Position numbers and translations under genes: made by a program. Positions 4,598 through 57,143 of a stretch of 64,000 nucleotides of DNA are shown here, piece after piece. The stretch is from Squalus acanthias. Lineage: Eukaryota. Below the pieces are notes generated by a model, which was given only the letters and a program-made list of their open reading frames with translations, searched no databases and was not told the DNA's origin. The DNA lies in the NCBI GenBank assembly GCA_030390025.1, contig CM059432.1:61816001-61880000 (forward strand), in the 5' to 3' direction. Each line of letters starts with the position of its first letter. Position 1 is the first letter of the stretch.

Positions 4598-4711
4598 AGA
4601 AATCCTGCAAGAGATACAGAGATTGAGACTTGAGCACGAGCAGGCATCTCAACCCACACCTGAGAAGGCACAACAGAACCCCACCCTCCTAGCAGAACTC
4701 CGGCTCCTCAG
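4598..4711 (+). CDS. DTNA: Alpha-dystrobrevin exon (coiled-coil region): [38 protein letters not shown]
   Basis: ttgtcag acceptor, gtaact donor, 114 nt, phase 2-2. Peptide recognised as dystrobrevin. Upstream exons are outside the window. Confidence 0.97.
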
Positions 4712-7700
4712 GTAACTCATTGAAAATGCAATTTAATTCAAAATTAGCCTGATAAATGTTGACTGGTGATGAGGTCAGTCACTGGCTAGAGCTCTCTCCT
4801 CTTTAAAAAAAATTCTCAATCTTTCTCCCTGCTCTGCCCTCATCCTCTTCCCTTCTGCTGCAGCAGCAAATTTTTTCCACTTCCTCCACAAGAGATGGGA
4901 AGAAAAAAATATTTTGGATTTTGGCTTGTTGCAGGGTTAAGTTTTGATGACACTCTGCGCACAGTATGTTTGGTGTGTTTTACATGGATGGGGAGAGAGG
5001 GTGGGGTCTCAAACCTGCTTGTTTTAGTCACATTCCAATATACAAACTGTATATTTGTACTGGGATCCATGGAGGTGAGCAGCTCACTTACACTGTTCTG
5101 GCTACAAGAAAATGGGACAAAGGTGATGTGCTGTGATAGAAAATAATATGGGGCCAGAAAACCCGTGATCCCACTCCTCAATAGTTACAATGACAGATAG
5201 TTATGACGCACCCAAATTCCTGACCCCGTAAGAGGCCATTTACATCGTGGTGCTGAGCACCTGCTCCGTAACGGCACATCTTGGGTGCCAACTAAATGGG
5301 CAGCAAAATGAACTGCTTGCCAGCTGCTTGTAGGCTAAGTTGGTAAAGAGCTCCCAAGATTTGAAGTCAGCCGCTTTATAAGAGGGCCGATTTTATTGGG
5401 GCCAGAAGTTCCAACTTGGAGTGTTCTAGGTCATGAATCCAACCTGGAATGCTCTTGTGATCCCTACTTCTGCCTGTGGCACCTTCTTCAAATTTTTCAG
5501 GCTGTAAGGTGAACACAGGTAGTCCTGGTGTCAATTTCTTGGGGCAGAGACCGGGTGTTACTGAGCCCCAGCCTATTTTCCACCTCCCGCTAATTCCTGT
5601 GGTAACACAATACAGCTTCCTGTGACTCGAACTTTATTACATCACTTCCTGTGATTAGTCCAGGATAAATACTGGGCTGATCAGTTGGATCCTGGAGAGG
5701 CATAGAGTAAGACCTCTTTTGTATGTAGCACCTTTTTAGTTGATTAAAGCTTACTTTAAGTTCACCACGCGTAAGGCTCATTCTTACGACAATTCCCACC
5801 TACTGGGGTATGCCAGCAACCTTCCCGATCCCCAAGGAAATTTGAGGGCATAAAAATTAGCATTGTGTTTGAGTAGTTTTGGAACAAACCCATTCAGTGT
5901 CAAATGGGATTCTGCTGATTCTGCTCATATTTCTACAGTTAACTAAGCTTGTTAAAACACCAGTTGCTTATGCTCAGTGTCTGACTGATCCACCCGTCGC
6001 CTAGCTCAGAAACCATGCTTTATGTCATCTGCAAACACTCCTTTAGTCTAATTCATCATGTGATTCGATTTAAAAAATGTTTCAAAACAATGAAATATTG
6101 AATTGTGTGCTACAAATTTCACGAATAGAAAATTGTGTATTATTGATTCATTCCTGAAACTAGCCATGTCTGCAAAAGACTGCAACAGTAATGCTAAGGA
6201 AATCTTGTTACTGATCTAACATCAAATACATGATTTGCTTCTTCACGGTCAAATCAAACAGGGATAGACCAGACCCAGCCAAAGTTTTGACATGCATGAT
6301 CAATCAAACAAATGCTATCAGATTAATCCTATTCAAATATTGAAAGCACTGGCTGATACTGAACTGCTGCTTAAATATGCAGTCTTGAGGATAATCAGCA
6401 TCCTGAATAGTGCTAAAGTCTGCCCAAAGTAGCTTAATTTCTTTCATTTTTCAGTAAAAATCAAAATAAACCGCTGGTGTTGCAAGGCGTACAATGTATA
6501 TGACTTTTTTGTGACCTGCTATTTATTAGTGACTTTTTTTTTCTCTCGGCAAGGTGAGGGATGTCAGTTATATGGAAACAAACTTGTATTTTGTATTTTT
6601 ATTGCAATCTTGTGTTTACATAGCATTTCATCATTTAAAACCATTTCAAATCATTTACCACACTGAATTACTTTTGCAATGCATGCCTTTTATTATGTAG
6701 GGATTCAAGCACTTGCAGATTGAACAAAGTAACATTTTCCTTATTTTGCTCCAACATTGTGCCATCAATCCCAACCTCAAAAGAGCATCCTTTAATGTAG
6801 AGGCATTCATTTTTTCCAATCCATCTCTGAGTGAGGTTGGATTTTTCTGCTGTGAGCCATGCACACAAGTAATCTGATTGAAACTGCCGAAACTCATTTC
6901 ACATAGGACTAGCAGAGAGCAGCGACTTATACACAAGTTTTATTTTTAAAATCATTATAAATTTGAATTGGCATGAAATTGTTGTTTTCAACGTGCTAGT
7001 ACAAAAATGTTTTTCTTGTTCCGCTTTTAAAACATATAAAATTAACCGTTTCTTCCCCCTCTCATTGCTTCTACATATGCCTCTGTTACACACGCATTCC
7101 ATTTACTATTGGAGAAGTCAGGCAGGCGATTTATTCCCAGCTTTTACCAATATTGGTTGTGAGTCATCCTCTAATTATCCCTCTGTGGAAAAATGCCTTA
7201 CATCTAGTTAATGCCTCCATAGTGCAGCCAGGGTTAGGAATTCATCATGTGAGGAATGATGGATACAAACCAGCATCTTGACCTTCTGTGGCACACAGCA
7301 GCACTGAATATAGACTTCTTAAATATGTAAGCAGCAGTTCTGAAGTTGCAACAAACATTTCAAATGTGAATAAGAGGGGAGGGTGTTTGGATATTCATTT
7401 ATGACGGTGCTGCATGTTTTTTATTTGCCCTGTTATATTTTGCAAGCTGCTGCCAGAAACCGTTTTATTCTCCACAGACAACTAATAAGTCATCAAATTT
7501 TATCATGTTGGGTGACAACCAAGTTTTATTTAAACTGGGCTAATGCAAAAATAAACTTAATAGTTGTTGGTTCTTGTTGATTATCATCAGGACATGTTCG
7601 TATTCAATATTTTACAGTATGAAAATGCCTCTGGAACCCATTAGACACTGTAGGATCCAGGTCTACTAGCAAATGGCTAATTTAACATCAAAGCCCTTGG

Positions 7701-7962
7701 TCTTGCCAATATTACATTGGCTTATTGTTCCAGTAGGGATGATACTGTTAACAAAAATATAAATTGATGACAAAAAGACTAGCATTTCCTAGAAGTAAAT
7801 AGGATGTCCAGCTGTCAAATATTAAATAGACAAAATACTTGGATACATTTGCACAGTGAAATGAAGTTAAAATATAATTCATTTTCATTTTGTGATAGAG
7901 TTGTATATATGCATACTGGTAGTAATATTTTAAAACAATGGATGAAAGTAGCATAATAGTAC

Positions 7963-8430
7963 AAAAGAAAGAATTACATTTCTATAGCGCCTTTCACGAC
8001 CACCGGACGTCTCAAAGCGCTTTACAGCCAATGAAGTACTTTTTTGGAGTGTAGTCACTGTTGTAATGTGGGAAACGCAGCAGCCAATTTGCGCACAGCA
8101 AGCTCCCACAAACAGCAATGTGATAATGACCAGATAATCTGTTTTTGTTATGTTGATTGAGGGATAAATATATGCCAGGACACCGGGGATAACTCCCCTG
8201 CTCTTCTTCGAAATAGTGCCATGGGATCTTTTACATCCACCTGAGAGGGCAGATGGGGCCTCAGTTTAACGTCTCATCTGAAAGATGGCACCTCCGACAG
8301 TGCAGCACTCCTTCAGCACTGCACTGGAGTATCAGCCTAGCTTTATGTGCTCAAGTCCCTGGAGTGGGACTTGAACCCACAACCTTCTGACTCAGAGGCG
8401 AGTGTGCTACCCACTGAGCCACAGCTGACA
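7963..8430 (-). mobile_element. tRNA-derived Deu-domain SINE (SacSINE1/AmnSINE-like) with L2-type tail
   Basis: Reverse complement has a tRNA-like head (A box TGGCTCAGTGGG, B box GGTTCAAGTCC), the central Deu-like domain and tail GAAAGGCGCTATAGAAAT. Matches 33901-34362. Confidence 0.88.
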
Positions 8431-8919
8431 CAAAGCATTGGTGTGCTAATACTCTTGTGTCATAGGTCAGTTAGATTCCTGATTTTGGTTAGACTATTAT
8501 GGTAACCACAGGAGATGATGATGCTTGCGATGGAGGCAGTACTGATGAATAGGTCATTATGGCTGTCTCTCATGCTCCTCCTGGTGGGTAGTTCAAGGGT
8601 GCCATTGGCAGACACATAAAAGCAGATCACCTGTCCACTCTGAGCTATGGAACAGTGTATGATATAGGAAGATATAAGGAGGAGATAAAATAATTAAAAT
8701 GGGTTATACAAACAAAAATAGCAGAAAGAAATGATCAAAGTATACCATTTGATACCAGTAATCAAAGGCACCATTTCATGAAGAAATGTTTAACAAACAA
8801 GCTGGTGGGATTTAAATGAGGCCCAGCCATTAAAATCGTACGTGTCTCATTCTGACACAGGGAAATTAACTCACCACCCCGGTTTCTAGCTGGAAACCCT
8901 CAGGCAATTAAAATCCAGA

Positions 8920-9080
8920 GGTCGCACAACACCAGGTTATAGTCCAACAGTTTTATCACCTGAGGAAGGGGCGATCGATAGCTCCGAAAGCTTGTGATTT
9001 CAAATAAAACTGTTGGACTATAACCTGGTGTTGTGCGACCTCTCAATTTTGTCCACCCCAGTCCAACACCGGCATCTCCG
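8920..9080 (+). mobile_element. Short Penelope-like terminal-repeat insertion with inverted 5' segment
   Basis: 14-bp TSD AATTAAAATCCAGA (8906-8919 and 9081-9094), perfect 40-bp inverted repeat (8917-8956 / 9004-9043), AATAAA, partial sister copy at 17820-17900. Confidence 0.8.
8955..8998 (+). ncRNA. Minimal type I hammerhead ribozyme motif
   Basis: Stem I ATCAC/GTGAT, core CTGAGGA (8960-8966), stem II GGGGC/GCTCC, GAAA (8986-8989), palindromic AGCT in place of stem III, then UH. Confidence 0.7.
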
Positions 9081-9180
9081 AATTAAAATCCAGACCATGG
9101 ACTTGAAAATGAGGACTAAATTATGTCTCTGCACACCATGGTCCAATTATCACTTTGACGCCAACCCCACTTAACACTTG

Positions 9181-10071
9181 GGGGTAAAAATTCACTTGGT
9201 TGCGCCACCCGTTAGCGCCTTAAGAGGGCGCTAATGGGGCGCAAAGCCGCTAACGCCCGGGCGCAGCGATGTTTGCGCCGCTCGAGAACTTAACTTGAGA
9301 TTGTGCGGCGGCGCTAAAACTTACCGCTGCGACCACCTGCGCGCGCAGATTGTGACGTCATTCCATGGTGCAACGCCCTTGGGGCGCCCCGTAGCGGAAA
9401 TTGAGTGGCGCCCCCTGCCTTACCGCCTGGCGCTTCCAACGACCAGAAGACTGGAACGCTATCAATCGCTGTGGGGCTGGTGGGGGCGCTATTTAAAGGG
9501 GGCCTCTTCCTGTCTTTTATTGTTGGTGGCATTTTTGAACTACGCATTCTGAGAGAGAGAGAGAGACTTCTGGAGAGTTTCAACGTTGTGTGAAGGAGTT
9601 TTGGGTACTGAGCAGCACTTTGCAGGTTCATTTTGAATTGCCATTCCTTGTATCGATTTAGCAGAGACCGTGGGAGCTGCACTCTGAGCTCTTTGCCTGG
9701 TGCTCTCCATTGTTCTTTCCAGCACATTTGATGTGCAAGTCTCTCCAGGCCGAGATTCAAGGCAGCAATGAACAGGATGTGGATGGAAAGCAAGATTAAC
9801 CAACCCCTTTAAGAACTGGCCCGTGCCATTGTGTGTGTGTTCCATTGCTGACTGACATTACATGAGCTTCGCCAGCGCTCCGAGTTAGCGCCTCACTGCT
9901 CGGCCTTTGCGCCTTAAGAGAGGTGTGCAGCGCCTGCTTTAGCGCTCCACTCACCTCCCGGGGCGGTAAAAGTGAAGTTTCCCGTCAGTGCCGATAATTA
10001 GCGCCAGGCGCTAATATTTGCGTCCGGACGATATTTGCGCCCCAAATGGGGCGCGACCTAATTTCTACCCC
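9181..10071. mobile_element. PIF/Harbinger-type MITE, family A copy 2
   Basis: TIR GGGGTAAAAATT / AATTTCTACCCC, 3-bp TSD TTG (9178-9180 and 10072-10074). Confidence 0.92.
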
Positions 10072-10436
10072 TTGGTCTTGACTCTCCACGTGCAATGTCA
10101 CAGAAAATCGACAAGCATAATACGAAATTTGATAAAAAGGCACGAAGTAATTTTGCAAGGTCCCAAGATTTCACCAAGAAGACATGAGGAAAAGAGTGCC
10201 CAATTTTGCTGTTCTGGACCAAGGTAGATCTGGCTGCTCCCACAACAAAAACATAAATTCTAACCTTTAATGTCAGAACAAAACCTCGATTGGCACCTTT
10301 CTGAAAATATATAATTATTAAAATAAACTTAGAAGAATCTGTTGGCATTGTAAACTTCATTTCTTTACTTTGTTGTTGATAAACTGATATACATATGTGT
10401 TAGATTAAAAGTTAGTTCTTGATGTACACTTCACAG

Positions 10437-10533
10437 GCAGCGAAAAGATGAATTAGAACAAAGGATGTCGGCACTGCAAGAAAGCCGCCGAGAATTAATG
10501 GTTCAACTGGAAGGTCTGATGAAGTTACTGAAA
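10437..10533 (+). CDS. DTNA: Alpha-dystrobrevin exon: [32 protein letters not shown]
   Basis: tcacag acceptor, gtaagg donor, 97 nt, phase 2-0, in frame with the previous exon. Confidence 0.97.
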
Positions 10534-17273: not shown

Positions 17274-17819
17274 GTGAGTCATTCTCAATATTACTGTCCG
17301 AAAAAGTAGATATTGAAGGAGAAATTGGTCCTCATTGCACCTGTTTTTTTGGTGCGAAATATATGCAGGGGGTGGAGCCAATTTCCAGGCACGATCTTCT
17401 GCGCCTCAATACCATCCCCCCCTCAGAAGTGCATCAGATGCCAAATTAGCACCTGGCAACTTCCAAGTGCCCTGGAAGTCAGCCTGAAACCGGCGTTAGG
17501 TGCCTTGAATATGCTAATCAGAGACCTAAAGCCTGTTTCAGGACCTGTTGATGCCAAATCTGGCAAAAACTGGGTGGAGCAATTTGAGAAGTTACCTGCT
17601 CTTCCAGGTCAATGGCAGCCAAACCAGTAGTCCTTAAAGGGACCGCAGAAAGCTACTTACTGAACAAGAGGTAAGTTTTTCTTATTTCACTTACCTTAAT
17701 GTGGAGCCGGGAGGAGCTCCTCTTTGCCCCACAGCAATAGTGGATGTAACATTGTCGGCTCGTGCTTCCCCAGCCACCCTCCCCCCCCCCCCCCCCCCCA
17801 CCCCCAACCTCCTGTAGGT

Positions 17820-17900
17820 AAATAAAACTGTTGGACTATAACCTGGTGTTGTGCGACTTCTCATTTTTGTCCACCCCAGTCCAACACCGGCATCTCCGCA
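17820..17900 (+). mobile_element. Penelope-like terminal-repeat fragment without the hammerhead core
   Basis: Near-identical to 9002-9080. Confidence 0.75.
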
Positions 17901-17904
17901 TCCT

Positions 17905-18270
17905 GTAGGAGAGCATTTGGGGAACAGTGATCATAATATCATCAGCTTTAGAATAGTTATGGAAAAGGACAAGGTACAATAAAGCATTAAAATACTTAAC
18001 TGGAGGAGGGCTAACTTCAGTGAGTTGAAAAGAGATCTGGCCCAGGTGGATTGGAATCAAAAATTGGTAGGCAAAACAATAATTGAACAAAGGGAGGCCT
18101 TCAAAATGGAGATGGTTTGGGTACAGAGTAGACACATTCCCATGAGGGGGAAAGGAAGGGCATCCAAAGCTAGAGCTCTCTGGATGACTAAAGATATAGA
18201 GGTTAAAATGAGACAGAGAAAGGAGACTTAGAACAATTGTATGGTTAATAATATAGTAGAGAACCAAGCT
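17905..18270 (+). mobile_element. CR1 ORF2 fragment
   Basis: GEHLGNSDHNII and KRDLAQVDWNQKL motifs. Confidence 0.8.
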
Positions 18271-18278
18271 GAATCATA

Positions 18279-19017
18279 GGGGGAAAAGTTAGGTTGGCTC
18301 GCGCCTCTCATTAGCACCCCCAGGGGGTGTTAACGGGGCGCAAATCCCCTAGCACCCAGGCGTGGCGCCGCTAACACCTCCCATGAAATTCAGTGGGAGG
18401 TTATCAGTAGCCGGTAGCGCCCCGTAATGCTGTGCCACCAGCGATGACGCCATCGACGTGCGCAGCGCCCCACTTGCACCCCGGCCACAAACTTCCCTTG
18501 CGCCTCCTGAACTATCGCCGGATGATATGTCCAACAGGATCAGGGGGTGTTATTGCAGCGGTGGCAGCGCTACTTAAAGGGCAGGTGTTGGGAGGCCATT
18601 TTTATTTTGGCCGACTGCCAGCACCTGCCCCCGTTCCCTTTTTTATGCAGGGTGCCGGCCGCGATCGCTCAGCCCAGCACTCCTCTTGAGTGCCGGGCTG
18701 TTTTCACAGCACCCCGCTCCCCGGCGGTCCAGCAGGGCCCCGGTGCGTGCAACGCTAGACCCCTCCCCTTTAATCAGGGGAGGAGACCTGTGATTACGCT
18801 ACGTGCTGCCGCGCATGTCGCTGTTGCACGTAGCGCCACGAACTTCAGTAGTAGCGCCCCAAGCAGGAGGTGGAGCGCTTTCCAGTAGTGCTCCACCTCC
18901 TGCTTGGGGCGCTACTACTGAATTTACGGTGGAGGGGCACTAACTTTTTCCGGGCGTCAAAATTAGCACCCCAGCGACGTTAGCGCTCCAAAAGGGGCGC
19001 CACCCAATTTTTCCCCC
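18279..19017. mobile_element. PIF/Harbinger-type MITE, family C
   Basis: GGGGGAAAAGTT / AATTTTTCCCCC ends and 3-bp TSD ATA. Inserted in the (CATAGAAT)n tail of a minus-strand CR1. Confidence 0.9.
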
Positions 19018-22959: not shown

Positions 22960-25900
22960 ATAGAAAGTTCAGATGAGATCTAAAAAAGGGAATAAGAGGG
23001 GCAAAGAGAGAGTATGAGACTAGATTAGCGGCTAACATAAAAGGAAACCCAAAAGTCTTTTATAAACACATAAATAATAAAAGGGTTGTCAAAGGAAGGC
23101 TGGGGCCAATTAAGGACCTAATAGGAGATCTTATTGTGGAGGCAGAGGGCATGACTGAGGTACTAAAGGAGTACTTTGCATCTGTCTTCACTAGAGAAGA
23201 GGATGATGCCAATGTAGCAGTAAAGGAAGAGGCATTAGTGATATTGGATAGGATAAAAATAGATAAAGAGGATGTACTTAAAAGGTTGGCAGTCCTCAAA
23301 GTAAAAAACTCACCCTGTCCAGATGGGATGCATCCTAGGTTACTAAGGGAAGTAAGGGTGGAAATTGTCAAGGCTCTGGTCAAAATCTTCCAATCCTCCT
23401 TGCATAAGGGGGTAGTGTCAGAGAACTGGAGGATTGCAAATGTTACACCCCTGTTTAAAAAAGGGGAGAGGGATAAACGCGGCAACTACAAGCCAGTCAG
23501 CCTAACATAGGTGGTGGGGAACTTTTAGAGACAATAATCCGGGACAAAATTAATTGGCCTTTGGAAAAGTATGCGCGAATAAATGATAGTCAGCACGGAG
23601 TTGTTAAAGGCTAATCGTGTTTGACTAACTTGATTACGTTCTTTGGTGAAGTAACAGAGAGGGTTGCTGAGGGTAGTGCGGTTGATGTATATATGGACTT
23701 TCAAAAGGCGTTTGACAAAGTACAAACAGTAATACGGAGGTTGGGGATGGCATTAAAAGGGAAATTAGAGAAGCGTGCAATAAGAGCACAGCAGTTATCA
23801 TGGGCGACTTTAATCTACATATAGATTGGGCTAACCAAATTAGTAACAATACTGTGGAGGAGGAATTCCTGGAGTGTATACGGGATGGTTTCCTGGACCA
23901 ATATGTCGAGGAACCAACTAGAGATCAGGCCATCTTAGACTGAGTATTATGTAATGAGAAAGGATTAATTAGCAATCTTGTTGTGCGAGGCCCCTTGGGT
24001 CGGAGCGATCATAATATGATAGAATTCTTCATTAAGACGGAGAGTGAAGTAGTTGACTCAGAGACTAGGGTCCTGAATTTAAATAAAGGAAACTACGATG
24101 GTATGAGGCGCGAGTTGGGTAGGATTGATTGGGGAATGTCACTCAAAGGGTTGCCGGTGGATAGGCAATGGCAAACATTCAAAGACCGCATGAATGAACT
24201 ACAGAGTTTGTTCATCCCAGTTTGGCATAAAAATAAAACAAAAAAGGTGACTCAACCGTGGCTAACAAAGGAAATTAGGGATAGCATAAGATCCAAGGAG
24301 AGGACATATAAATTGGCCAGAAAAAGCAGAAAACCTGAGGATTGGGAGCAGTATAGAATTCAGCAAAGAAGGACAAAGGGATTAATTAAGAGGGGGAAAA
24401 TAGAGTATGAGAGTAAGCTTTCAGGGAACATAAAAACTGACTGTAAAAGCTTTTATAGATATGTGAAGAGAAAAAGATTGGTGAAGTCAAGCGTAGGTCC
24501 CTTGCAGTCAAAATCAGGGGAATTTATAATGGGGAACAAAGAAATGGCAGACCAATTAAATACATACTTTGGTTCTGTCTTCACAAAGGAGGACACAAAT
24601 AACTTCCCAGAGATGTCGGGGAACATAGGGTCTAATGAGAGGGAGGAACTGAAAGAAATCAGTATTTGTAGGGAAATAGTGTTAGGGAAATTGACGGGAT
24701 TGAAGGCTGATAAATCCCCAGGGCCTGATAATCTACATCCTAGGGTACTTAAGGAAGTGGCCCTAGAAATAGTAGATGCATTGATGGTCATCTTCCAAAA
24801 TTCTATAGACTCTGGAACAGTACCCATGGATTGGAGGGTAGCTAATGTAACCCCACTATTCAGAAAAGGTGGTAGAGAGAAAGCTGGGAATTATAGACCG
24901 GTAAGCCTGACATCGGTAGTGGGGAAAATGCTCGAGTCCATTATAAAAGATGTAATAGCAGAGCACTTGGAAAACAGTGACAGGATCGGACAAAGTCAAC
25001 ATGGATTTACAAAAGGTAAATCGTGCTTGACTAATCTACTGGAATTTTTTGAGGATGTAACTGGTAAAATAGATAAGGGAGAACCAGTGGATGTGGTAGA
25101 TTTGGACTTTCAGAAGGCTTTCGATAAGGTCCCGCATAAGAGATTAGCATGTAAAGTTAAGGCACATGGGATTGGGGGCAAGGTATTGACTTGGATAGAG
25201 AACTGGTTGGCAGACAGAAAGCAAAGAGTTGGAATAAATGGGTCTTTTTCCGAGTGGCAGGCAGTGACTAGTGGGGTACCACAGTGATCGGTCCTAGGAC
25301 CCCAGATTTCACAATATATATTAATGATCTAGACGAGGGAATTGGATGTAATATCTCCAAGTTTGCAGACGACACAAAGCTGGGTGGGAGTGTGTGCCAT
25401 GAGGAGGATGCCGAGAAACTCCAGTATGATTTGGACAGGTTGGGTGATTGGGCAGAAGCATGGCAGATGCAATATAATGTGGATAAATGCAAGGTTATCC
25501 ACTTTGGTGTCAAAAACAGGAAGGCAGATTATTATCTGAATGGCAATAGATTGGGAGAAGGGGAAGTGCAACGAGACCTGGGTGTCCTTGTGCACCAGTC
25601 GCTGAAGGTAAGCATGCAGGTGCAGCAGGCGGTTAAGAAGGCAAATGGTATGTTGGCCTTCGTAGCGAAAGGGTTTGAGTACAGGAACAAGGATGTCTTG
25701 CTGCAGTTGTACAGGGCCTTGGTGAGACCACATCTTGAGTATTGTGTGCAGTTTTGGTCGCCTTATCTGAGAAAGGATGTTCTTGCCATGGAGGGAGTGC
25801 GGCGAAGATTCACCAGGCTGATACCTGGGATGGCAGGAATGACGTATGAGGAGAGATTGGGTCAATTGGGCTTATACTCGCTGGAGTTTAGAAGAATGAG

Positions 25901-27380
25901 AGGGGATTTCACTGAAACTTATAAAATTCTAACAGGACTAGACAGACTAGATGCAGGAAGGATGTTCCCGATGGCCGGGGAGTCCAGAACCAGGGGTCAC
26001 AGTCTAAGGATAAGGGGTAAGCCATTTAGGACTGAGATGAGGAGGAATTTCTTCACCCAGAGAGTGGTGAACCTTTGGAATTCTCTACCACAGAAGGCAG
26101 TAGAGGCCAATTCATTAAATATATTCAAGAAGGAGTTAAATATATTTCTTAAAGCTAAAGGGATCAAGGGATATGGAGAGAAGGCAGGGACAGGGTACTG
26201 AATTTGGATGATCAGCCATGATCTCATTGAATGGCGGAGCAGGCTCGAGGGGCTGAGTGGCCTGCTCCTGCTCCTATCTTCTATGTTTCTATGTTTCTAC
26301 CACATAAATAGACTTGTTAGCAAAATTAAAGCCCATGGGATTAAAGGGACTGTGGCAGCATGGATACAGAATTGGCTATGGGACAGGAAGCAGAGAGTAG
26401 TAGTGAACAGTTGTTTTTCAGACTGGAGGGAATTATACAGTGGTGTTCCCCAAGGGTCAGTATTAGGACCACGGCTCTTTTCGATCTATATTAATGACCT
26501 GAACATAGGAATACAGGGCATAATTTCAAAGTTTGCAGATGATACGAAACTCGGAAATGTAGTAAACAATGAGGAGGATAGTAACAGACTGGTAAAATGG
26601 CTGATGAAATTTAATGCAGAGAAGCGTGACATGATACATTTTGGTAGGAAGAATGAGGAAAGGCAATATGCATTAAATGGTACAATTTTAAAGGGAGTGC
26701 AAGAACAGAGCGACCTCGGGTGTATGTACACAAATCTTTGAAGGTGACAGGACTCGTTGAGATGTTAAAAAAGCATATGGGATCCTTGGCATTATTAATG
26801 GAGGAATAGAATACAAAAGCAAGGAAGTTATGCTAATCTTTTATAAAACACTGGTTCGGCTTCAGCTAGAGTATTGTGTACAATTCTGGGCAACACGCTT
26901 TAGGAAGGATGGCAAGGCCTTGGAGAGGATGCAGAAGAGATTTACCAGAATGGTACCAGGGATGAGGGTCTTCAGTTACGTGGAGAAGCTGGGGTTGTTC
27001 TCCTTAGAACAGAGAAGGTTAAGAGGAGATTTAATCAAGTTTGATAGAGTAAATAAAGAGAAACTGTTTCCAGTGGCAGAAGGATCGGTAACCAGAGGAC
27101 ACAGATTTAAGGTGATTGGCAAAAAAAAACAAAGGCGACATGAGGAAACTTTTTTTTACACAGCGAGTTGTTGTGATCCGGAATGTACTACCTGTAAGGG
27201 TGGTGGAAGCTGATTCAATAATAACATTCAAAAGCGAATTGAATAAATACTAAAGGGAAAAAATTTACAGGGCAATGGGGAAAGAGCAGGGGTGTGGAAT
27301 TAATTGGACAGCTCTATTGAAGAGCCGGCACAGGTAAGATGGGCCAATGGTCTCCTTCTGTGCTATATCATTCTACGATT
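22960..27380 (+). mobile_element. Older CR1 ORF2 (22960-23723 and 26298-27380) interrupted by a younger CR1
   Basis: RT motif DFQKAFDKV stops at 23723 and resumes as PH..RLVSKIKAHG near 26300. Confidence 0.88.
23724..26297 (+). mobile_element. Young 5'-truncated CR1 LINE with near-intact ORF2 (endonuclease C-part plus reverse transcriptase)
   Basis: ORFs 23983-25287 (434 aa) and 25284-26201 (305 aa) with QHGF, DFQKAFD, GVPQ and FADD motifs. Stop at 23941, stop/frameshift near 25285, tail CTATGTTTCTATGTTTCTA. Confidence 0.96.
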
Positions 27381-31350: not shown

Positions 31351-31860
31351 GGGGGAAAAATTTGTTAGTGATCATTTTGGGTTGTTAACATCGCCTGGGC
31401 ACTAAATTTAGAGCCCAGCAAAAAATAGCGCCAGCGATCGCTAACTTCAGTTTTAGCGCCCCAAGAGGGAGGTGGAGCGCTAATTCAAGCACTCCACTTC
31501 CTTCTTAGAGCACTAACCCTGAATATCAGGGCTTGCATTCTGCAACGCTACGCACTGGGCCACATAGCGCTGCCGCATGGAAGGGCTCTTCCCCTCATTA
31601 AAGAGGAGGTCCCAAGCCTTCAACTCTGCGGGGCCCTACCTGGACCATCGGGGAGCGGGGTGCCGTGCCAGCAGCCCGGCACTCAAGAGGAGTGCCAGGC
31701 TGCCAGATCGCGGCACGGACCCCGCGTTCAAAGACGCAACGGGCCGCGACAAGTAAGTCGGCTGATTTTTTTTCTCCCCTCCCGCCACCTCCCCTTTAGT
31801 TAGCGCTCCACGAGCCTCCTGCCACTCCGTTCCCGCCCCCTGCATTGCTCCTTGGACAAC
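31351..31860. mobile_element. Partial Harbinger-type MITE related to family C
   Basis: GGGGGAAAAATTT start, TAGCGCCCC repeats and GAGGTGGAGCGCT shared with 18279-19017. Confidence 0.6.
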
Positions 31861-35037: not shown

Positions 35038-36126
35038 ATGGGGGCTCTACTTGCAGGCCCCCTCACGCTCGAGTATCTTTGGGAGAGGGAGTGGAGGCAG
35101 TGAAGAAGGGGAGAAGATGTTCGCAGAGGGAGGAGGAGGGGGGCCAGGAAGGTTCTTAGCTGGAGGCCTTGAGTCTTCAAAGAGCACTTCTCTTACCTCC
35201 ACTTAAGCGAGGAGCAGGCTCCGCTTCACCAAGGAGGTGGTCACAGAACTCTGCCACATCCTGCAACCAGACCTGCAGCCTCAGAGCAGGGCGACAACAG
35301 TTCTCCCAGTGGCCCTCAATATTTTCACCAGCGGATCCTTCCAGTCTGCAGCAGGAGACATAGCTGACATCTCCCAGTTTGCCGTCCATCGCTGCATCCA
35401 GGTCACAGAGGCTCTACTCCAGGAGAAGGGACTTCATTGTCTTCTCTCTGAACAGAGAGAAGCAGGACAAACGCGCACGTGGCTTTGCCAGGTTAGCGTG
35501 CTTCCCCATGGTGCAGGGAGCAATCGACTGCACCCATGTGACTTTGCGGGCACCGCACACCAATCCTTAGATGTTCCGTAACCGCAAAGGCTACTACTCA
35601 CTTAATGTGCTGTTGTGCGACCACGCCCAGCACATCATGATGATGAATGCCCGCTATCCTGGCAGCAGTCTTGATGCCTTCACCCCTGCGCCAGTCCGGT
35701 GTGCCAGCAATCTTCCAGCCACCACGTCAAACCCGAGGGTGGCTGCTCAGAGATAAGGGCTATATGCTCTGCACCTGCCTGATGACTCCCCTCTACAACC
35801 CCACCACTTGTGCCCAGCACTCATACGATGACAGCCATGCTGCCACCAGGAACATCATCGAGCAGACCATCGGGGTGCTCAAGCAACAGTTCCGCTGCCT
35901 TGACCACTCGGGAGGAGCCCTCCAGTACTCGCCGGTGTCCCATTTCATGGTTGTCTGCTGCATGCTCCACAACTTGACCATCATGAAGGCGCAGCCCTTG
36001 CCACCAGAGATTGCAGGACCACCTCAGGAGGAGTTGGAAGAGGAGAAGGGAGGGAAGAAGCGGGCAGCAAATCCCCGTTCTGGACGGACTGTCCGTGATT
36101 GCCTCATCAGACTCCAATTCCAGTAA
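35038..36126 (+). pseudogene. Harbinger DDE transposase (HARBI1-like), frameshifted
   Basis: FPMVQGAIDCTHV, FRNRKGYYSLNV, ARYPGS, WLLRDKGY, HAATRNIIEQTIGVLK and CCMLHN motifs across several frames. Confidence 0.93.
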
Positions 36127-36319
36127 ATGAAACCCCAGATCTCCCTTGCACACCACTTCCCCATCATCCATCCCTCTGTTGCGGAACATCACAGCATCCT
36201 CCTGGAGACAAAGCTGAAATGAGAGCCACCACAAAACACATAACCAAACAAAATTCATAAAGTTATCCAAATCCAATCAAAATGAGAATATCAACTATTC
36301 ACTCAAGTGCATTCCCTTA

Positions 36320-37111
36320 GGGCTGGATTTTGAATGACCCGTGGAGTCAGGTTTGGAGGCGTGTGGGGGGTTAAATTTGCGGGATCGGGGGTCCCGACTC
36401 CATCCCGCCTCCACGCAATTTTGACAAAATCAGTCGCGGGGTTCTCGACTCCGTCCCGCCTCCAAGAGGTGGGAGAGGCCATTAAAGCCCTTAACAAGCC
36501 CTAAATTGGCTCTGTAATGCCATTTTGAAATGTTTTAGATAGTTTAACCCTTTTCCGATGTGAAGTACGCCTGGTGTGAAACACTCCAGTGAAACCTGGC
36601 GGGAGCACAAGTGGATAGTTGACTATCAGCTGCAGGTCCACTATTACAACGGAGATGTGATGAAGGTAGTAGTAGTATTGTGATGAAGGTAGTAGTAGTA
36701 TTAGGTCTGAAAGTCGCCTCTGATGCTGCTGCATTGAATGTCTTCAGAGACTGCCTGGCCTTTGCTGGGAGAGGACCTGGATGCAAAAAAAATTGTCTCT
36801 GCTCTCTGTCTCTCTCTGCCTCTCTGTCTCTCCATTTTGCATCCAGGTCCACTCACAGCAAAAGCCAGGCACGTCCTCTCTCACCAACATCCAGTCAGTC
36901 TCTGACCTTCAATGCAGCAGCAATGATGACATCATCAGAGGCGACTTTCAGACTGAAACCACTAATTAGTTCATGGGTTCCCACATGCTGGAACTCAATT
37001 GCCCAATTAAGTGAAAATTGCATCATTCAGCCACGTTAATCTGGAGCCGGGGGGGGAACACGAAATGCGGATGACACGACCCCAACCTGACCCCAAGACA
37101 AAATCCAGCCC
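36320..37111. mobile_element. MITE family D copy nested inside the Harbinger element
   Basis: TIR GGGCTGGATTTTG / CAAAATCCAGCCC, colinear with 19066-19937. The equivalent empty site CCCTTAGT is in the second Harbinger near 51773. Confidence 0.92.
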
Positions 37112-38920
37112 TAGTGTCTGTCTTTCCTGTTCCTTTTCCTACTCTAGTGCTCCTAAGCAGTGCTCCCCCAGTGGCTGCAGCATGGCTGGTGGAAGGCTGC
37201 TGACTTTCAGTGGGGGAAAACTGCAGATGGTCTTGCACGGTGATCTCAAGCAGCTCTGGACCTAGAAGGCCCGGCTGTACACTGCACCACCTTGGCATAG
37301 GTGGCAGCAGTCTGGGCTGGCTGGCTGACTGGCAGCAACAAGGGCAATGGTGGAGTGGCAGTGGTGGGAGTAGGAATGCTGTCATCCTGAGAGAGTACAG
37401 CAGGTTCTTGCTCCACAGCCCCACCCACCCCGGGGCAGCGCCTCAACATTCTTAGCAATCTGTTGGAGCACAGATTGCTGGACTGCTGCAACACCCTGCA
37501 AGCCCCTTTCAAGACTCATAAACCCAGCAACAATGGCAGCAGTCTGAGCTTCCACTGCAGCAGTGAGACGTTGGGTCGCTTCCGCCTGTGCTGTAATGGA
37601 AGCTGCAAGATCGTCCATCACACCCAGTGGGTCCACGAGGTCTCTCCTGGAATTGTCCATCATTTTCATCCTGGAAATCATGGTCTTCAAGCTCTGCGCA
37701 AAGCCCCGCTCAATTTTGGAGCCGGACTCCTCCATGCTCCTTGACACTGACAAGAGGCTCTCTGGCAGGCTTACATTTCTGTATGCATGCCCATCACCCT
37801 TCTTCTGAAGGCCACCCCATCGAGTTCATCATCTGGATCCTGTGGAGAAGAACTCGTGTGCAAACTCGCTCTCCAGGGAGCTGGCACCCAAGCTACCCTT
37901 TCTCCCCTGGCCTGACTGCAGACCACTCATGCCCAGTGACTCACCATGTGCAGATCCTGCCTCTATACGACCCTCTGAGTTGGTGTCTATGAGTGTCAAA
38001 TGCAGTGCTGGTGTCTCTTATTCTGCTTCTTGTTTGTCTCCTCCTTCAGCTTGCTGATGATGAGGGACAGGCTGGCCTGTTAACAGTTCTTGGATGTCTG
38101 AAAGCAGAAAGGCACAAAGGTCGGGTCGTGGTGAGGGGAGTGGGGGGAAGCAAGATATCCAAGCATACACCATCAGCAGCTTGTAAGTGAGAAGAGATTG
38201 GGATGAGGGGGAAATGGGATGTGAGAAGAAGGATTAAGTATGACCATATCATCATAATCAGCAATGGTTTCAACTTCTCTGCAAACGGACACTGTCACTG
38301 CCCCTCCAATGATTTCAAGCACAGATTCCTCCAGGTCCATCAGGTTCTCTATTGTAGCTTGGCCACTTCCCGTCTGCTGTTGCTCCCTCCTGTTCTGAAC
38401 CACCTTGGCCTGCAAGAGAAAGGAAAATGTGCGAGTGAGTGCGGTGCAATGTGTTTGGGTGATGTGCCTGCCATAGTTGAATAGCTGTCAGTGTGTGCAA
38501 GGTGAGATATGGGTGTGAGTATTGCAGAAGCGGTAAGTGTGTGAGGGTGAAGTGAAGCAAGGAGTGTGAGGTCTGAGTGGTGATAGCAAGAGATTGTTGG
38601 TAGGTGAGTGATGGGGGTGTGGTCCATTGAGCAGTGTGTGAGGCTTGTGGTGCAGATGGTCGGATATGGCATTTGCTGAAGCCTTCACTCACCTTGACCT
38701 GCCGTGTGAGGTCATTAAACTTTTTTTGACACTTGGCACCACACTGGTAGCCTTGACGGATTCAGCAATCTCTTCCCACAACATTCAGCAAATGACTTTG
38801 GTTGGCCTCTTGCCTCCCTGATGGTAAAGGACAAGCCTGACTTTGTTGCACCCCCAGGACCAAGGCCGCCAGTGCAGCATCTGAAAATCTTCTAGCTCAT
38901 TCTCTAGGTTGTTGTGCCAT
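37112..38920 (-). pseudogene. Harbinger Myb/SANT-like DNA-binding protein gene, three exons, disabled
   Basis: Exon 1 38920-38693 (MAQQPRE*ARRFSDAAL...WEEIAESV...KKFNDL), GT-AG intron 38692-38410, exon 2 AKVVQNRREQQQTGSG...LEESVLEIIGG, second acceptor at 38098. Confidence 0.8.
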
Positions 38921-41172: not shown

Positions 41173-41759
41173 TCCATCTTCACTGCCGGGACAGTAATCT
41201 GGTGGAGTGGACCACCTGACCACTGTAGAATCCACCTAATTTTTATTCCAATCAGGCAGGTTCTACAACAGACAGGCAATCCACTCCACCAGATTACTGC
41301 CGAAAGTGAAAATTACCCCCATTGATTCTCTGCTATATTCTGTTGTTGTTAAAAGGAAAGCAGTGAAAGTTCATGCGGCCTTCTATACAGATTCTTAAAG
41401 CTGTACTTTATCTGTTATCCGTGCCCGTGTGTCTAGTGAACGGCGTTAGGGTGCTGATTTGCGAGCAGGTATGGCTATGGACATTATCTATTTGCAGGTT
41501 CTGGAGGAGGAGGATCATAGGAGGCATGCACTTATCAGATGCAGATCTACATTTGCTCAATTAAAGCTGGTGTTACCTTTATTGTTAAAATAGATTGAAT
41601 GGGAAATGTGCTAAGCTGAAAGAAGGTTAACTTAACTTCATTTAAGTAAATTCTTATTCTACTTCCTATTTTGGTTTCAAATAATATCGCTCTGGGAGCA
41701 GAGGTGTAATATCAATATCCATGCTAGATACTTTAAGTTTCCTTTCAACTTATTTCCTG

Positions 41760-43787
41760 TCTGGACTGGCTGATCTGGCTGGACCACATAAAGCATTATC
41801 AGGTCCTGCTCTCGTTTGCCAAAATTGCTCACTATTCCAGAATCATTCTGGAATGCAAAGATAAACCCCAGCTTCTATTCTCCACTGCTAACCATCTTCT
41901 TAAACCCTTCTTCCCTGTCTCCTCCACCCTCGCCTCCGACAACAAGTATGAGGAGCTCATGGACTTCTTTGTCTCTAAGATTGAGACCATCCGATCAGCT
42001 GCCTCTGCTACTTCCCTTCCTTCCCCTAATCCACCGGGCCAAACTTCCTCTGAGGTTCCTCCCTGTCCTAGCCCTGAACTCACATCTTTCTCCAGATTCT
42101 CTCTGATTTCCCCTGATGACCTCTCCGAGCTCATCTTGCCCATGAGACCCACTTCCTGCTCCCTCGACCCTATTCCCATCAAACTGCTGACCACCCAACT
42201 TCCTTTTCTGGCTCCCATGTTAGCTGACATTCTTAACGGTTCTCTCTCCTCAGGTACTGTCCCCCTCTCCCTCAAATCTGCCGTCATCACCCCTCTCCTC
42301 AAAAAACAACCCTTGACCCCTCCGTCCTTGCAAACTACCACCCCATTTCCAACCTCCCTTTCCTCTCCAAAGTCCTTGAACGTGTTGTCGCCTCTCAAAT
42401 CCGTGCCCATCTTTCCCACAATTCCATGTTTGAATCCCCCAATCAGGTTTCCGCCCTCGCCACAATACCGAAACAGCTCTCATCAAAGTCACAAATGACA
42501 TACTTTGTGACTGTGACAAAGGTAAACTATCCCTCCTTGTCCTTCTTGACTTGTCTGCAACCTTTGACACGGTTGACCACTCCATCCTTCTCCAACGCCT
42601 CTCCACCGTCGTCCAGTTGGATGGGACTGCACTCGCCTGGTTCCATTCTTATCTATCTAATTGTAGCCATAGAATCACCTGCAACGGATTCTCTTCTCGC
42701 TCCCACATCGTTACCTCTGGTGTCCCCCAAGGATCTATCCTTGGCCCCCTCCTATTTCTCATCTACATGTTGCCCCTTGGCAACATCATCCGAAAACACA
42801 GCGTCAGTTTCCACATGTACGCTGACGACACCCAGCTCTACCTCACCACCATTTCTCTCGATCCCTCCACGGTCTCTAAATTGTCAGATTGCTTGTCCGA
42901 CATCCAGTTCTGGATGAGCAGAAATTTTCTCCAATTAAATATTGGGAAGACCGAAGTCATTGTTTTCGGTCCCCGCCACAAACTCCGTTCCCGAGCCACT
43001 GACTCCATCCCTTTCCCTAACATCTGTCTGAAGCTGAACTACACTGTTCGCAACCTTGGTGTCATATTTGACCCTGAAATGAGCTTCCGACCACATATCC
43101 GCAGCACAACTGAGACCGCCTATTTCCACCGCCGTAACATCGCCCGTCTCTGCACCTGCTTCAGCTCATCCGCAGCTGAAACCCTCATCCATGCCTTTGT
43201 TACCTCTAGACTTGACTATTCCAACGCACTCCTGGCTGGCCTCCCACATTCTACCCTATGTAAACTTGAGGTCATCCAAAACTCGGCTGCCCATGTCCTA
43301 ACTCACACCAAGTCCCGTTCACCCATCACCACTGTGCTCGCTGACCTACACTGGCTCCCGGTTAAGCAACACCTCAATTTCAAAATTCTCATCCTTGTTT
43401 TCAAATCTGTCTATGGCCTCACCCCTCCCTATCTCTGTAATCTCATTCAGCCCCACAACCCCCCCGAGATATCTGCGCTCCTCTAATTCTGCCCTCTTGA
43501 GCATCCCTGATTATAATCGCTCAACCATTGGTGGCCGTGCCTTCTGTTGCCTAGGCCCTAAGCTCTGGAATTCCCTCCTTAAACCTCTCCGCCTCTCTAC
43601 CTCTCTTTCCTCCTTTAAGACGCTCCTTAAAACCTACCTCTTTGACCAAGTTTTTGGTCGCCTACACAAATTTCTCCTTACGTGGCTCGGTGTCAAATGT
43701 TTTGTCTTATAACACTCCTGTGAAGCACCTTGGGATGTTTTACTATGTTAAAGGCGCTATATAAATACAAGTTGTTGTTGTTGTTGT
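41760..43787 (+). mobile_element. L2-clade LINE, 5'-truncated, RT domain largely intact
   Basis: ORF 42551-43486 with FDTVDH, GVPQGSILGP, YADDTQLY, SRLDYSN and LHWLP. Tail AAAGGCGCTATATAAATACAAG(TTG)n. A short tail-only copy lies at about 44270-44410. Confidence 0.95.
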
Positions 43788-46200: not shown

Positions 46201-46572
46201 TTGTTTACTTTTCAGAACAACATTCACCAAAAGGTGGTAACAAATCCAGACATCCCATCTATAACTACTTCTTCCCACCAGGTCTACCCTTTTTGACAGT
46301 TAACTTACTTCTTCTAGCTCCTATTGCTTCTACGAGGTGCTCCCTGCTAAATTCGTGGGGGCCTTTTTTAGATATCCTGGGCGAACGCATAAAACAAGCA
46401 TTAGGCCGGTTAATTATGTAAATTAGGGGGCTAATGCTTGTTGAAGAACGTTTGTTGAAGAACCCCATCAAGAAATTTGTTACCGATGAGTGGTCCAGGC
46501 ATCGAGCCTGCCCTGCTCAGGATTCTTTAGCAGCCCCTGTGGCTGCTAACGAGAGACAAGTTAATAAATGAT

Positions 46573-47249
46573 GGGGGATAAATTCTGTGGTGCCTCCTTT
46601 GGGGCGCTAACTTTGTCGAGGCGCTACTTTTAGTGCCCCGAAAAGGTTAGCGCCCTGCGCCGTAAATTCAGTGGTAGCGCCCCAAGCAGGAGGCTACTGG
46701 AAGCGCACCCCCTCCTTTCTGGGGTGCTACAAGTGAATATCGCAGTGCTATGTGCAACAGCGCCACGCACGTCGGCATGTAGCACCGCGATATTGCAGGA
46801 CTCCCTCCCCTGATTAAAGGGGAGGGGCCTAGCGCTGCGCGCACCGGGGCCCTGCTGGACCACCAGCGAAAGCTCAGCGATCGCGGCCGGCACCCCGAAT
46901 AAAAAAGGGGAAGGGGGCAGGTGCTGGCAGGCGACCAAAAATAAATGGCCACCCGACACCTGCCCATTAAATTGCGCCGCCGCGGCTGCAAAAACGGCAC
47001 CCTGACCCTGTTGGACATATCGTCCGGTGATAGGTCAGGGGGCGCAACTTAAGTTTGCAGCCGGGGCGCTGTGCACAGCGATGACGCCATCGCCGGAGGC
47101 ACAGCGCCGCAGGTCGCTACCGGTTACCGCCGCCACTAACCTCCCACTGAATTTCACGGGAGGCATCAGTGGCGCCACGCCCGGGCACTAGGGGCTTTGT
47201 GTCCCATTAGCACCCCCCCGGAGGCACAAAGCAACCCAATTTTTCCCTC
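46573..47249. mobile_element. MITE family C, inverted relative to 18279-19017
   Basis: GGGGGATAAATT / AATTTTTCCCTC ends, flanks GAT/AAT, colinear reverse complement. Confidence 0.88.
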
Positions 47250-50269: not shown

Positions 50270-53040
50270 AGGACAGAATCACGAGATGGCGCTAAAACGC
50301 CGTTCAGAGCTCTACCGTCAGCTGATGGTGGTTCCAGCGCCACACGCCATATCCATCTTGCCAGTAGCGCTGCCGGTAAACTTGATCGCCAGGTCCATCG
50401 CAATCATGGAGATCATTACGTCAGTGAATGTGCAACGCTCACTTTATGCCCAATCTCCCAACTTCATTTTGGCCATTGAACTTACCGGCTGGAGAAAGCA
50501 ACAACAGGTTGAGGTGGTGTGCAGCAGCAGGAAGCCTTTACCGGGATCCTCACCAATCACTCGCACCTGACAGGATTTTGAAGTTTAAGTGGCTGTGTGC
50601 TAGTTCCTGCTACTGCAGTTGACCTCGCCCTCCAGGATCTATGGCAGAGAGAGCGAAGGCAGCGAGAAAGACAGGAGCATGTGCGCAGAGGGAGGAGGAG
50701 GGCTTTCAGGGCTCTCAACAGGAGGCCTTACCCTCTAAGAGTCTTCCGACAGCACTTCTCCTACCTTCAATTAAACAAGGAGCAGTGTATTAGGAGGCTT
50801 CACTTCACCAAGGAGGTGGTCCCAGAACTCTGCCACCTCCTGCAACTAGACCTCCAGCCTCAGACCAGGGTGACCACAGCTCTCCCAGTGGCAGTCAAGG
50901 TGACCATGGCCCTCAATTTCTTCGCCAGTGGATCCTTCCAGTCTGCAGCAGGAGACACAGCTAACATCACCGTATAACAATCCTGAGATCTTCCGTAACC
51001 GCAAAGCCTACCACTCACTTAATGTGCAGTTGGTGTGCGACCACACACAGCGAATCCTCAATGTCAATGCCCGCTATCCTGGCAGCAGCCACGATGCCTT
51101 CATCCTGCGCCAGACCGGTGTGCCAGCACTCTTCCAGCCACCTCATCAAGCTCGTGGGTGGCTGCTCAGAGACAAGGGCTATCCGCTGTATACCTGGCTC
51201 ATGACTCCCCTCCGCAACCCCAACACTCGTGCCCAACACTCATATAATGAGAGCCATGCTGCCACCAGGAACATCATCGAGCTGACCATCGGCTTACTGA
51301 AGCAACGGTTCTGCTCCCTTGACCGCTCGGGAGGAGCCCTCCAGTACTCGCCAGAGCTGGTGTACCATCTCGTGGTGGTCTGCTGCATGCTCCACAACGT
51401 GGCCATCATGAGGGCGCAGCCCTTGCCACCAGGGATTGTGGGACCACCTCAGGAGGAGGATGAGGGAGAGGAGGACGAGGATAAGGAGGGAAAGGAACAA
51501 GAGGGAGGGATGAGGCAGCCAATCGGCCTTCTGGACGGGCGGTCCGTGACTGGCTCATCAGACTCCGATTCGAATGAATGAAACCCCAGATCCCCGTTGC
51601 TCACTACATCCCCATCATACCATCCCTGTCGCAAGCCATATCACAGCATCCTCCTGGGTGCAAAGCTGAAATGAGAGACACCACAAAAGATTCCAAACAC
51701 AATTAATAAATTTATCTAAACACATATCACACATATTACATCAACACTATTAACTAATCACCCTTGTGCAATCCCTTAGTACCTGTCCATGTGCCTTTTC
51801 CTACTCTAGTGCTCCTACGCAGTGCGCCCCCAGTGGCTGTAGCATGGCTGGTGGAAGGCTGCTGAGTTTCCGTGCGGGAGTCTTCAGATAGCCTTGCAGG
51901 ACGATCTCAACCAGCTCTGGACCTAGAAGGCCCGGCTGTGGACTGCACCACCTCGGCATGTGCGGCAGCAGTCTGGGCTAGCTGAATGACAGGCAGCGGC
52001 AAGGGCAATGGCGGAGTGGCAGTGGTGGGAGCAGGAACGCTCTCATCCTAAGAGAGGACAGCAGGTTCCTGCCCACTGCCACTCCCCCCGGGCGGCACCT
52101 CAGCATTCCTAGCAATCTGTTGGAGCACAGATTGCTCACCTGCTGCGACACCGTGAAAGCCCCGGTCGACGATGGTAGACCCAGCCATGATGGCAGCAGT
52201 CAGAGCTTGGGTGGCATCACGCTGAGACTACATGAGAGCAGCCAGAGATTGGATGCCACCAAGCAGAGACTGCATGAGAGCAGTCTGAGCCCAGCTGCAG
52301 CACTAAGAGGTTGGGTCGCTTCCGCCTGTGCTGCAATGGAAGCTGCAATATTGCTCATCATGCGCGTCATCACGTCTGGGTCGCCAACACCTCTCTGGGA
52401 GTGTACCATCATTTGCAGACTGGAAATGATGGGCTCCATGCTCTGCACAGAGCCTTGTGCAATGTTGGAGGCGGACTGCTCCACGCTCCTTGCCATTGCC
52501 GAGAGGCTCTCTGGCAGCCTTGCCATTGCACCTATCATTTCGGTGTGCATGCCCATCACCCTTCTTATAAAGGCCTCCCCATCAAGGTCCTCATCTGAGT
52601 CCTGTGCAGCAGAACTCGCAGTGCGAACTCGCTGGCCCCCGAGCTACCCTTTCCCCCTGGCCTTGCTGCAGCCCACTCGTGCCCGGTGCCTCACTCTGTG
52701 CAGATCCCGCTACTACACTAGCCTCTAAAGAACGTGTAGTGCCAGTATCTAAGCTGGTGTCTGTGAGTGACGGATGCAGTGACGCGGTGTCTTCTTCCTC
52801 CTCCTTCTCCTCTTCTCCCCCCTCACTCGCTGCGGTGCCCTCAGGGACAGGCTCTTCAGGTGCTTGCTCATTATCTGAAAGCAGAAAGGCACAAGAGTCG
52901 GGTTCTGGTGAGGGGAGGGGAACAGGAAGGCAGAAATACATGCATACAGCATAAGTAACTTGAAAGTGACAAAAGATTGTGGGCTGAGGGGGAAGTGGGA
53001 TGTGAGAAGAAAGAGTAGGGATGAACATACCGTGCAAAAA
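50270..53040. mobile_element. Second Harbinger transposon, right end lost
   Basis: Transposase remnant on + and last exon plus intron of the Myb gene on - (GTATGT donor at 53030, CAG acceptor at 52875). Colinear with 34579-39220. Confidence 0.88.
50597..51581 (+). pseudogene. Harbinger DDE transposase with an internal deletion near 50970
   Basis: ALNFFASGSFQ, NRKAYHSLNVQLVCD, YPGSSHDAFIL, WLLRDKGYP and CCMLHN are present; the GAIDCTH segment is missing. Confidence 0.92.
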
Positions 53041-56996: not shown

Positions 56997-57143
56997 ATTT
57001 ATACCACAGGCTCAAAAATTGGGAAACAAAACTTAAAAGTACAGCTTAAAATCTTCAGTGCTGTCATTGCAGAACCTAGCAATCCCGGACGCCCACTTTA
57101 TATGGGCGTGATTAAGACACAATACAATCACAGCAGCAAAGAC
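56997..57143 (+). repeat. Direct repeat flanking the RTE element (partner 58595-58742)
   Basis: 147 and 148 bp copies with about six differences by eye. Confidence 0.95.

Follow-up and report, generated by a model that had tools for sequence, protein, structure and literature searches.

A probable Penelope-like fold-back insertion carrying a minimal hammerhead motif in a dystrobrevin intron of a cartilaginous fish

Analysis of the window, the whole 64-kb stretch of DNA considered here, identified a short insert within a dystrobrevin intron of a cartilaginous fish. We read it, with a probability of about 0.9, as a young copy of a Penelope-like element with endonuclease, probably a member of the Neptune clade, which suffered extreme 5' truncation on insertion. 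The hammerhead carried by the 8906-9094 copy is, as judged from predicted folds, most likely a passenger that does not cut. Minimal hammerheads and fold-back insertions of Penelope elements have already been described, and the window copy is an ordinary example of both. As a single copy it matters little, and its value is that of a clean, dated product of an insertion reaction that is still poorly understood, for which the filled and the empty site are both known.

Table 1 Features of the insert, of a second copy of the same family and of the flanking host exons, in window positions
Feature	Position	Strand	Description
Dystrobrevin exon upstream of host intron	4598..4711	+	E 5e-16 to PDB 9c3c_V
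Left target-site duplication	8906..8919	+	14 bp, 11/14 A/T; one copy at the empty site (run X7)
Inverted arm	8920..8956	-	tail-less, 5'-truncated copy of 9004-9040
Stem I, 5' strand	8955..8959	+	pairs with 8994-8998
Core CUGAGGA and extra A	8960..8967	+	CUGAGGA 8960-8966, A8967; fits consensus CUGANGAH
Stem II	8968..8985	+	5 bp (8968-8972 with 8981-8985), one G-U, 8-nt loop
GAAA, AGCU palindrome and U17	8986..8993	+	GAAA 8986-8989, AGCU 8989-8992, U17 8993
Stem I, 3' strand	8994..8998	+	pairs with 8955-8959
AATAAA	9003..9008	+	polyadenylation-signal-like motif (sequence only)
Native 3' stem-loop	9011..9068	+	stem 9011-9019 with 9060-9068; shared by L002 and L003
One-sided tail	9041..9080 (or from 9044)	+	37-40 bp, direct copy only
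Right target-site duplication	9081..9094	+	14 bp, identical to the left one
Dystrobrevin exon downstream of host intron	10437..10533	+	E 5e-12
Second family copy	17819..17900	+	79/82 bases as in 9002-9083; hammerhead-less, without inverted arm

Architecture, age and host intron of the insert

The 161-bp insert is bounded by a 14-bp direct repeat (8906-8919 and 9081-9094, 100% identity), in agreement with the target-site duplication described in an earlier note on this DNA. The perfect inverted repeat of 40 bp described there was also confirmed, at 8917-8956 and 9004-9043; an imperfect extension brings it to 47 bp, and its arms enclose a loop of 47 nt. The outer 3 bp lie inside the duplication, where the pairing of the inverted arm continues through 8917-8919, and the other 37 bp are inserted DNA. 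The inverted 5' segment that had been suspected was recovered as 8920-8956, an inverted copy of 9004-9040. That first reading was thus right about the inverted repeat and the duplication, but it missed the 37-40 bp tail, of which the inverted arm carries none, as well as the native 3' stem-loop and the second copy at 17819-17900. The insert has a folding z-score of -11.6, and none of 200 shuffles folded equally well. The end of the tail-less arm falls in the loop of the native 3' stem-loop, whose stem has a pair probability of approximately 0.84 in the direct copy alone and 0 in the whole insert. In these predicted folds, the inverted arm of the 8906-9094 copy outcompetes the native 3' stem-loop.

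The insertion was dated by a comparison with read runs, carried out in 4 of 24 runs across 8680-9160. In run X7 (organism C), window position 8905 is joined directly to 9081 in a 2379-nt contig with a depth of 14.6, which covers 8680-8905 (226 letters) and 9081-9160 (80 letters) with 2 and 3 mismatching letters, respectively. Positions 8906-9080 are absent from this contig and a single copy of the duplication is left, which identifies a true and young insertion; the empty site is represented by one contig of one run. The divergence of organism C at the insertion locus is around 1-2%. In organism A, runs X1 and X2 from two studies gave mismatch-free left-flank contigs that enter the insert by 20 letters at about the depth of the flank, a reach that falls short of the 31-letter threshold for bridging a junction. 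These left junctions are suggestive of a filled site in organism A, and X1 possibly has the same source as the window. The fourth run, X13, which may be of RNA, has no coverage of the flanks and gives no indication on expression. The arms and the duplications are undiverged, consistent with a recent event, and the proposal of a recent insertion is therefore borne out by both the empty site in organism C and the lack of divergence.

The exons on the two sides of the insertion correspond to adjoining stretches (residues 512-549 and 549-581) of a dystrobrevin of solved structure and delimit a host intron of 5.7 kb (4712-10436), in which the insert lies in sense orientation with the nearest mapped exon 1.3 kb downstream. 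The exon matches uphold the dystrobrevin and sense parts of the earlier claim of a sense insertion in a DTNA intron; by its motifs, the gene is presumably 'alpha' rather than 'beta'. A pyrimidine-rich segment of the insert at 9039-9061 ends in CAG and, read in the sense direction, resembles a 3' splice site; it stands right before the ATG of the family. By its sequence, it could serve as a cryptic acceptor for the host gene. Introns in the 5' UTR occur in Penelope terminal repeats. Long perfect intronic hairpins such as this one could also be editing substrates.

The hammerhead motif and its relatives

The core boxes, stems I and II and the AGCU mini-stem were all found at the positions pointed out earlier, and the motif has the consensus features of a minimal type I hammerhead, namely the core, the extra nucleotide between 9 and 10.1 (A8967), the G10.1-C11.1 pair (G8968-C8985), the stub, in which the AGCU palindrome takes the place of stem III, and H17. 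With the numbering of PMC4209133, the cut is predicted after 8993. The pair probabilities of stems I and II in context are 0.8-0.97 (up to 1.0), and that of the outermost stem I pair is 0.35. The outermost base of stem I, A8955, comes from the inverted arm. In other contigs of the family this base is T, and a stem I of 4 bp is therefore probably the native form. Other family copies have 4 nt fewer in loop II, and the longer loop of the 8906-9094 copy probably reflects a 4-nt duplication. A descriptor requiring the core, a stem II of at least 4 bp and a stem I of 4 bp, applied to both strands, matched the 64-kb window at position 8960 only and none of 60 simulated windows. The covariance-model check proposed in the earlier note failed to recover the motif, with no hammerhead among the 12 Rfam matches at E<=10 in 8400-9600 and none at gathering level in the window; the Rfam hammerhead models appear to require helix III.

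The extra A after the core and the U at the cleavage position had been taken as weaknesses of the motif. Neither concern is supported, since the minimal-hammerhead consensus CUGANGAH of PMC4209133 has a nucleotide at the first place and, of the 44 rows seen of its alignment, 20 have U as nucleotide 17. Both features are normal for minimal hammerheads of Penelope elements and do not point to decay. No variant of at least 5% is listed at 8993 among the family contigs. The expectation of little activity from a single copy probably holds, but not for these two reasons. Further likeness to the hammerheads described for metazoan Penelope-like elements in PMC4209133 extends over the U-rich lead-in, the short helix I, CUGANGAH, G10.1-C11.1 and GAAA, and likewise over the palindromic stub, H17 and the AU-rich trailer. 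The row of the turtle Chrysemys has the same G-C-U-U stub, and a sea urchin row has helix I strands identical to those of the window motif. The window motif differs from these hammerheads by the probable duplication in loop II and by the clamping of helix I in a hairpin made by the insertion. The one supplementary file of PMC4209133 that was searched contains no shark or Callorhinchus entry, and the literature searched gave no description of the hammerhead of this shark family.

In the loose ends of the read contigs, other family copies have C or A at core position 7 with unchanged boxes, and their stem II is fully Watson-Crick. Covariation of the stems is weak. In three sequences, 52 of 53 cells are paired, with the pairing of stem II forced in this set by the search pattern, but the covariation is not significant, as its score is reached by 49 of 500 shuffles. 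One of the two double changes is genuine (helix I, L002) and the other is a junction artefact of A8955. The T at 8957 in the loose ends and the A at 8996 (around 21-23% of depth) might form a compensatory pair, but they are unlinked in the read data and were left out of the count.

The inserted sequence is a Penelope-like 3' end whose family is very abundant. In the two organism A runs, the depth summed over the insert, which is not a copy number, is approximately 0.3-6 million, compared with 8-32 for the unique flank on its left. Fourteen of the 15 joints listed (of 32 in total) link 8942-8954 to 8987-9049 and thus represent other fold-backs with other breakpoints. In the read runs, the sequence upstream of the hammerhead motif is heterogeneous, and past 9080 about 7-8 bases ending in ATG are common to the family before heterogeneous sequence follows. 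At position 9040, both arms of the insert have C, and T makes up around 74% of the depth in X1; the shared minority letter suggests that one event probably made both arms. The second copy in the window, at 17819-17900, begins 3' of the hammerhead and is flanked by a 9-bp duplication (17810-17818 and 17901-17909, 4/9 A/T); its target is GC-richer, with no ATT at the nick, which speaks against the Penelope reading. Two bases at the 3' end of this copy (4 of 5) are in common with the target.

The connection to Penelope proteins was established through metagenomic relatives. A degenerate hammerhead pattern retrieved three metagenome contigs (L001, L002 and L003), each of which carries pieces of a Penelope-type ORF and a stem I of 5 bp. 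L002 and the window share 73% identity across 81 nt that take in sequence 3' of the hammerhead. The hammerhead core of L002 lies around 210 nt past the stop of a frameshifted endonuclease C-terminus. In L003, a CX4CX2C finger and GIY-YIG motifs are in the same orientation as the core, which lies around 750 nt past the ORF stop, and in L001 an inverted RT fragment stands head to head with the same 3' region. L001 and L003, near-identical over 677 nt and counted as one family, show the head-to-head layout of the window insert. These hammerheads behind GIY-YIG-type ORF ends in L002 and L003 support the Penelope origin put forward earlier, and the ORF link for the window family runs via relatives with 73-79% identity over short stretches. 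As side observations, L001:1-1050 and L003:1-1470 are two independent head-to-head insertions of one marine Penelope family with different junctions, and in L002:505-1069 a Penelope 3' end has AT-rich DNA of prokaryotic appearance on one side and part of a deoxyhypusine synthase (Pfam E 2.5e-16) on the other. The L002 contig (coverage 0.8) is most likely an assembly or library chimera.

A search with the L003 protein led to two longer proteins, and one of these led to 790 relatives. Many of the best 120 of these 790 have RT domains and some have GIY-YIG domains, and the relatives listed among the 120 come from turtles, echinoderms, molluscs and the catshark Scyliorhinus torazame. L003 and its homologs have a cysteine finger in the linker from RT to GIY-YIG, a feature that marks the Neptune and Nematis clades according to the clade descriptions of PMC8557442. 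The relatives and the finger motif suggest that the element probably belongs to Neptune; this clade is found in turtles, sharks and marine invertebrates, and the ORF-bearing relatives match turtle and shark proteins. The tblastn search of 120 Penelope-type proteins found no Penelope ORF in the window; its five matches all concern non-Penelope parts of two chimeric proteins. The L003 protein matched no Pfam family at E<=0.1, had no relative among viral contigs and gave two weak, unrelated-looking matches in PDB, and GIY-YIG on its homolog P0001 scored 16.8 bits, below the Pfam cut-off. The exact 23-nt arm pattern had no match in the viral, metagenome and prokaryote collections, nor did the tight hammerhead pattern in the viral and prokaryote collections. 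Nine viral matches to a looser hammerhead pattern have a stem I of 0-1 bp and were rejected as chance.

Proposed origin of the insertion

Penelope insertions often comprise an inverted 5'-truncated copy and a tail of 30-40 bp at one end, according to the insertion structures in PMC8557442. The experiments reported in PMC11167929 indicate that a lizard Penelope protein cuts and extends both target strands with a preference for ATT, and that reverse transcription starts at two sites within a stem-loop whose spacing equals the tail. The layout outlined in these two sources has in common with the window insert the inverted 5' arm and the tail at one end, and likewise the AT-rich target, the ATT beside the bottom-strand nick and the inner end inside a stem-loop. 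The window insert differs from published Penelope insertions in its extreme truncation, to 161 bp in all.

We propose that the protein of the element made two nicks, one in each target strand and 14 nt apart, with the bottom nick beside ATT. The bottom-strand end would have primed reverse transcription at an outer start site close to 9080; synthesis of about 124 nt, to just past the hammerhead, would have given the direct copy (8957-9080). The top-strand end would have primed at an inner start site at 9040-9043 and copied 37 nt, and the two short cDNAs would then have been joined head to head at 8956/8957. The target end at 8910-8919 shows 8/10 complementarity to 9041-9050, the part of the template at which the inverted arm begins. 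Among AT-rich window sites, a complementarity of at least 8/10 occurs at 0.4% in a fixed register and at 1.8% with 5 nt of freedom; as a single event noticed post hoc, the match is a lead on second-strand priming. For the lizard element, of the Poseidon clade, the in vitro start reported in PMC11167929 is not homologous to the cut DNA, whereas the window insert shows this 8/10 complementarity. Second-strand priming by short complementarity in vivo would therefore differ from the homology-free start in the lizard. A further lead is the possibility that Neptune elements have a conserved stem-loop with the inner and the outer start site on either side of it.

In LINE-1 twin priming, the two arms derive from neighbouring parts of the RNA that do not overlap. 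The 5' inversions of LINE-1 resemble the window insert in the internal priming by a second strand with short complementarity and in the head-to-head junction. The window insert differs from them in that its inverted arm repeats part of the direct arm, which means that one template was read twice or that two templates were used.

The source of the copied RNA could be conceived differently. It is possible, but rather unlikely, that the master is a short non-autonomous element of SINE- or retrozyme-like kind, which derives from a Penelope terminal repeat and borrows a Penelope protein. The great abundance of the family and the tiny size of both window copies would suit such a master, and the preprint bioRxiv 10.64898/2026.07.22.740005 makes the case that the retrozymes of animals derive from Penelope elements and are non-autonomous; its one chondrichthyan genome is reported to contain retrozymes. 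The non-LTR retrozymes described there are short, non-coding, related to Penelope and equipped with a type I hammerhead, like the window insert, but they consist of tandem units each with a hammerhead, whereas the window insert is a solitary, truncated fold-back. The 64-kb window contains one hammerhead and no tandem hammerhead units. Furthermore, the lack of a tandem array, the absence of a fixed 5' end (the breakpoints vary, and the two window copies start differently) and the position of the metagenome relatives behind ORF ends speak against a non-autonomous master. The term 'non-autonomous' in the earlier note is not supported by this comparison, as the varying breakpoints and the differently truncated second copy fit ordinary 5' truncation whether the master is autonomous or not. 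Such a master is compatible with the insertion mechanism proposed above, from which it differs only in the nature of the master.

Expected activity and other repeats of the window

Under the Penelope-like origin, the hammerhead would belong to the terminal repeat of the element, and stem III could be completed there by a second copy in tandem or by the element protein. The 8906-9094 copy is expected to be silent because it has no partner copy and because the fold-back hairpin clamps stem I. Through the fold-back, stem I becomes part of a helix of around 45 bp, and the arms pair with a probability near 1. A dimer requires that stem I strands be swapped between molecules, and since the arms hold stem I in cis, cleavage should be low. 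For the isolated motif, the double-hammerhead fold is predicted at -23.9 kcal/mol, only 0.9 above two monomers (-24.8 kcal/mol), a point against a silent copy; the most stable dimer predicted, at -35.7 kcal/mol, has another fold, in which all strands are swapped. The dimer model of cleavage is set out in the review PMC6765202. In the in vitro assays of PMC4209133, a single minimal hammerhead gave no cleavage and dimers were weak, and in those of PMC11167929 the lizard Penelope hammerhead cut only with the element protein and was dispensable for insertion.

It is very unlikely that the hammerhead cuts the dystrobrevin pre-mRNA and affects the host transcript, by forming a dimer with family RNA or with the help of the element protein. 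Such an action would draw on an intact core in sense orientation, pre-formed stems I and II, an abundant family and the cleavage by the lizard hammerhead in the presence of its protein (PMC11167929). It is opposed by the in vitro record of PMC4209133, with no cleavage by a single minimal hammerhead and only low cleavage by dimers, by the 40-bp clamp that keeps stem I in cis, by the distance of 1.3 kb to the nearest mapped exon and by the absence of the insert from a relative diverged by only around 1-2%, which leaves no sign of selection. There is an equally slim chance that each fold-back plants a pre-folded half of a double hammerhead in a host intron. With very many family copies, some of them transcribed, a sense-oriented half such as this one would then cleave the dystrobrevin pre-mRNA in trans through AGCU pairing with family RNA or with protein help. 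If this were true, the retroelement family would constitute a dispersed, dose-dependent RNA-cleavage network in shark transcriptomes.

It is scarcely credible that the insert is a MITE, another DNA element of the fold-back kind or a microRNA-like hairpin, with a loop that resembles a hammerhead by chance. The short, non-coding insert with its long inverted repeat, target duplication and weak mir-39 match has such an appearance, but the right arm ends 37-40 bp before the end of the insert, so that the repeat is not terminal, the copy at 17819-17900 lacks an inverted repeat, the mir-39 match reaches 25.7 bits where the cut-off is 62, and the loop motif, with no chance match in 60 simulations, recurs behind Penelope-type ORF ends.

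Several other repeats were observed in the window. A 900-bp repeat with GC-rich hairpins begins 72 bp past the insert (9167-10071) and recurs at 924-1828 with 88% identity; it probably explains the word shares of 0.25-0.35 seen in other organisms. Another hairpin, of 39 bp and 95% complementary, lies at 18841-18925 within a repeat of around 700 bp, without a hammerhead core, and further copies of this repeat are found near 31351-31743 and 46571-47217. Two related, broken transposon copies at 35061-38248 and 50582-53029 contain transposase-like ORFs with tblastn matches and are presumably Harbinger-like. Long LINE remnants are located at 23944-26201, 41737-43486 and 57116-58095. One of them is of the CR1 type and, by the matches of its ORF, makes a cartilaginous fish the very probable host; from their translations we take the ORFs of the others to be L2-like and RTE-like. 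The named best matches of the CR1-type ORF come from stingray, skate, sawshark, catshark and chimaera.
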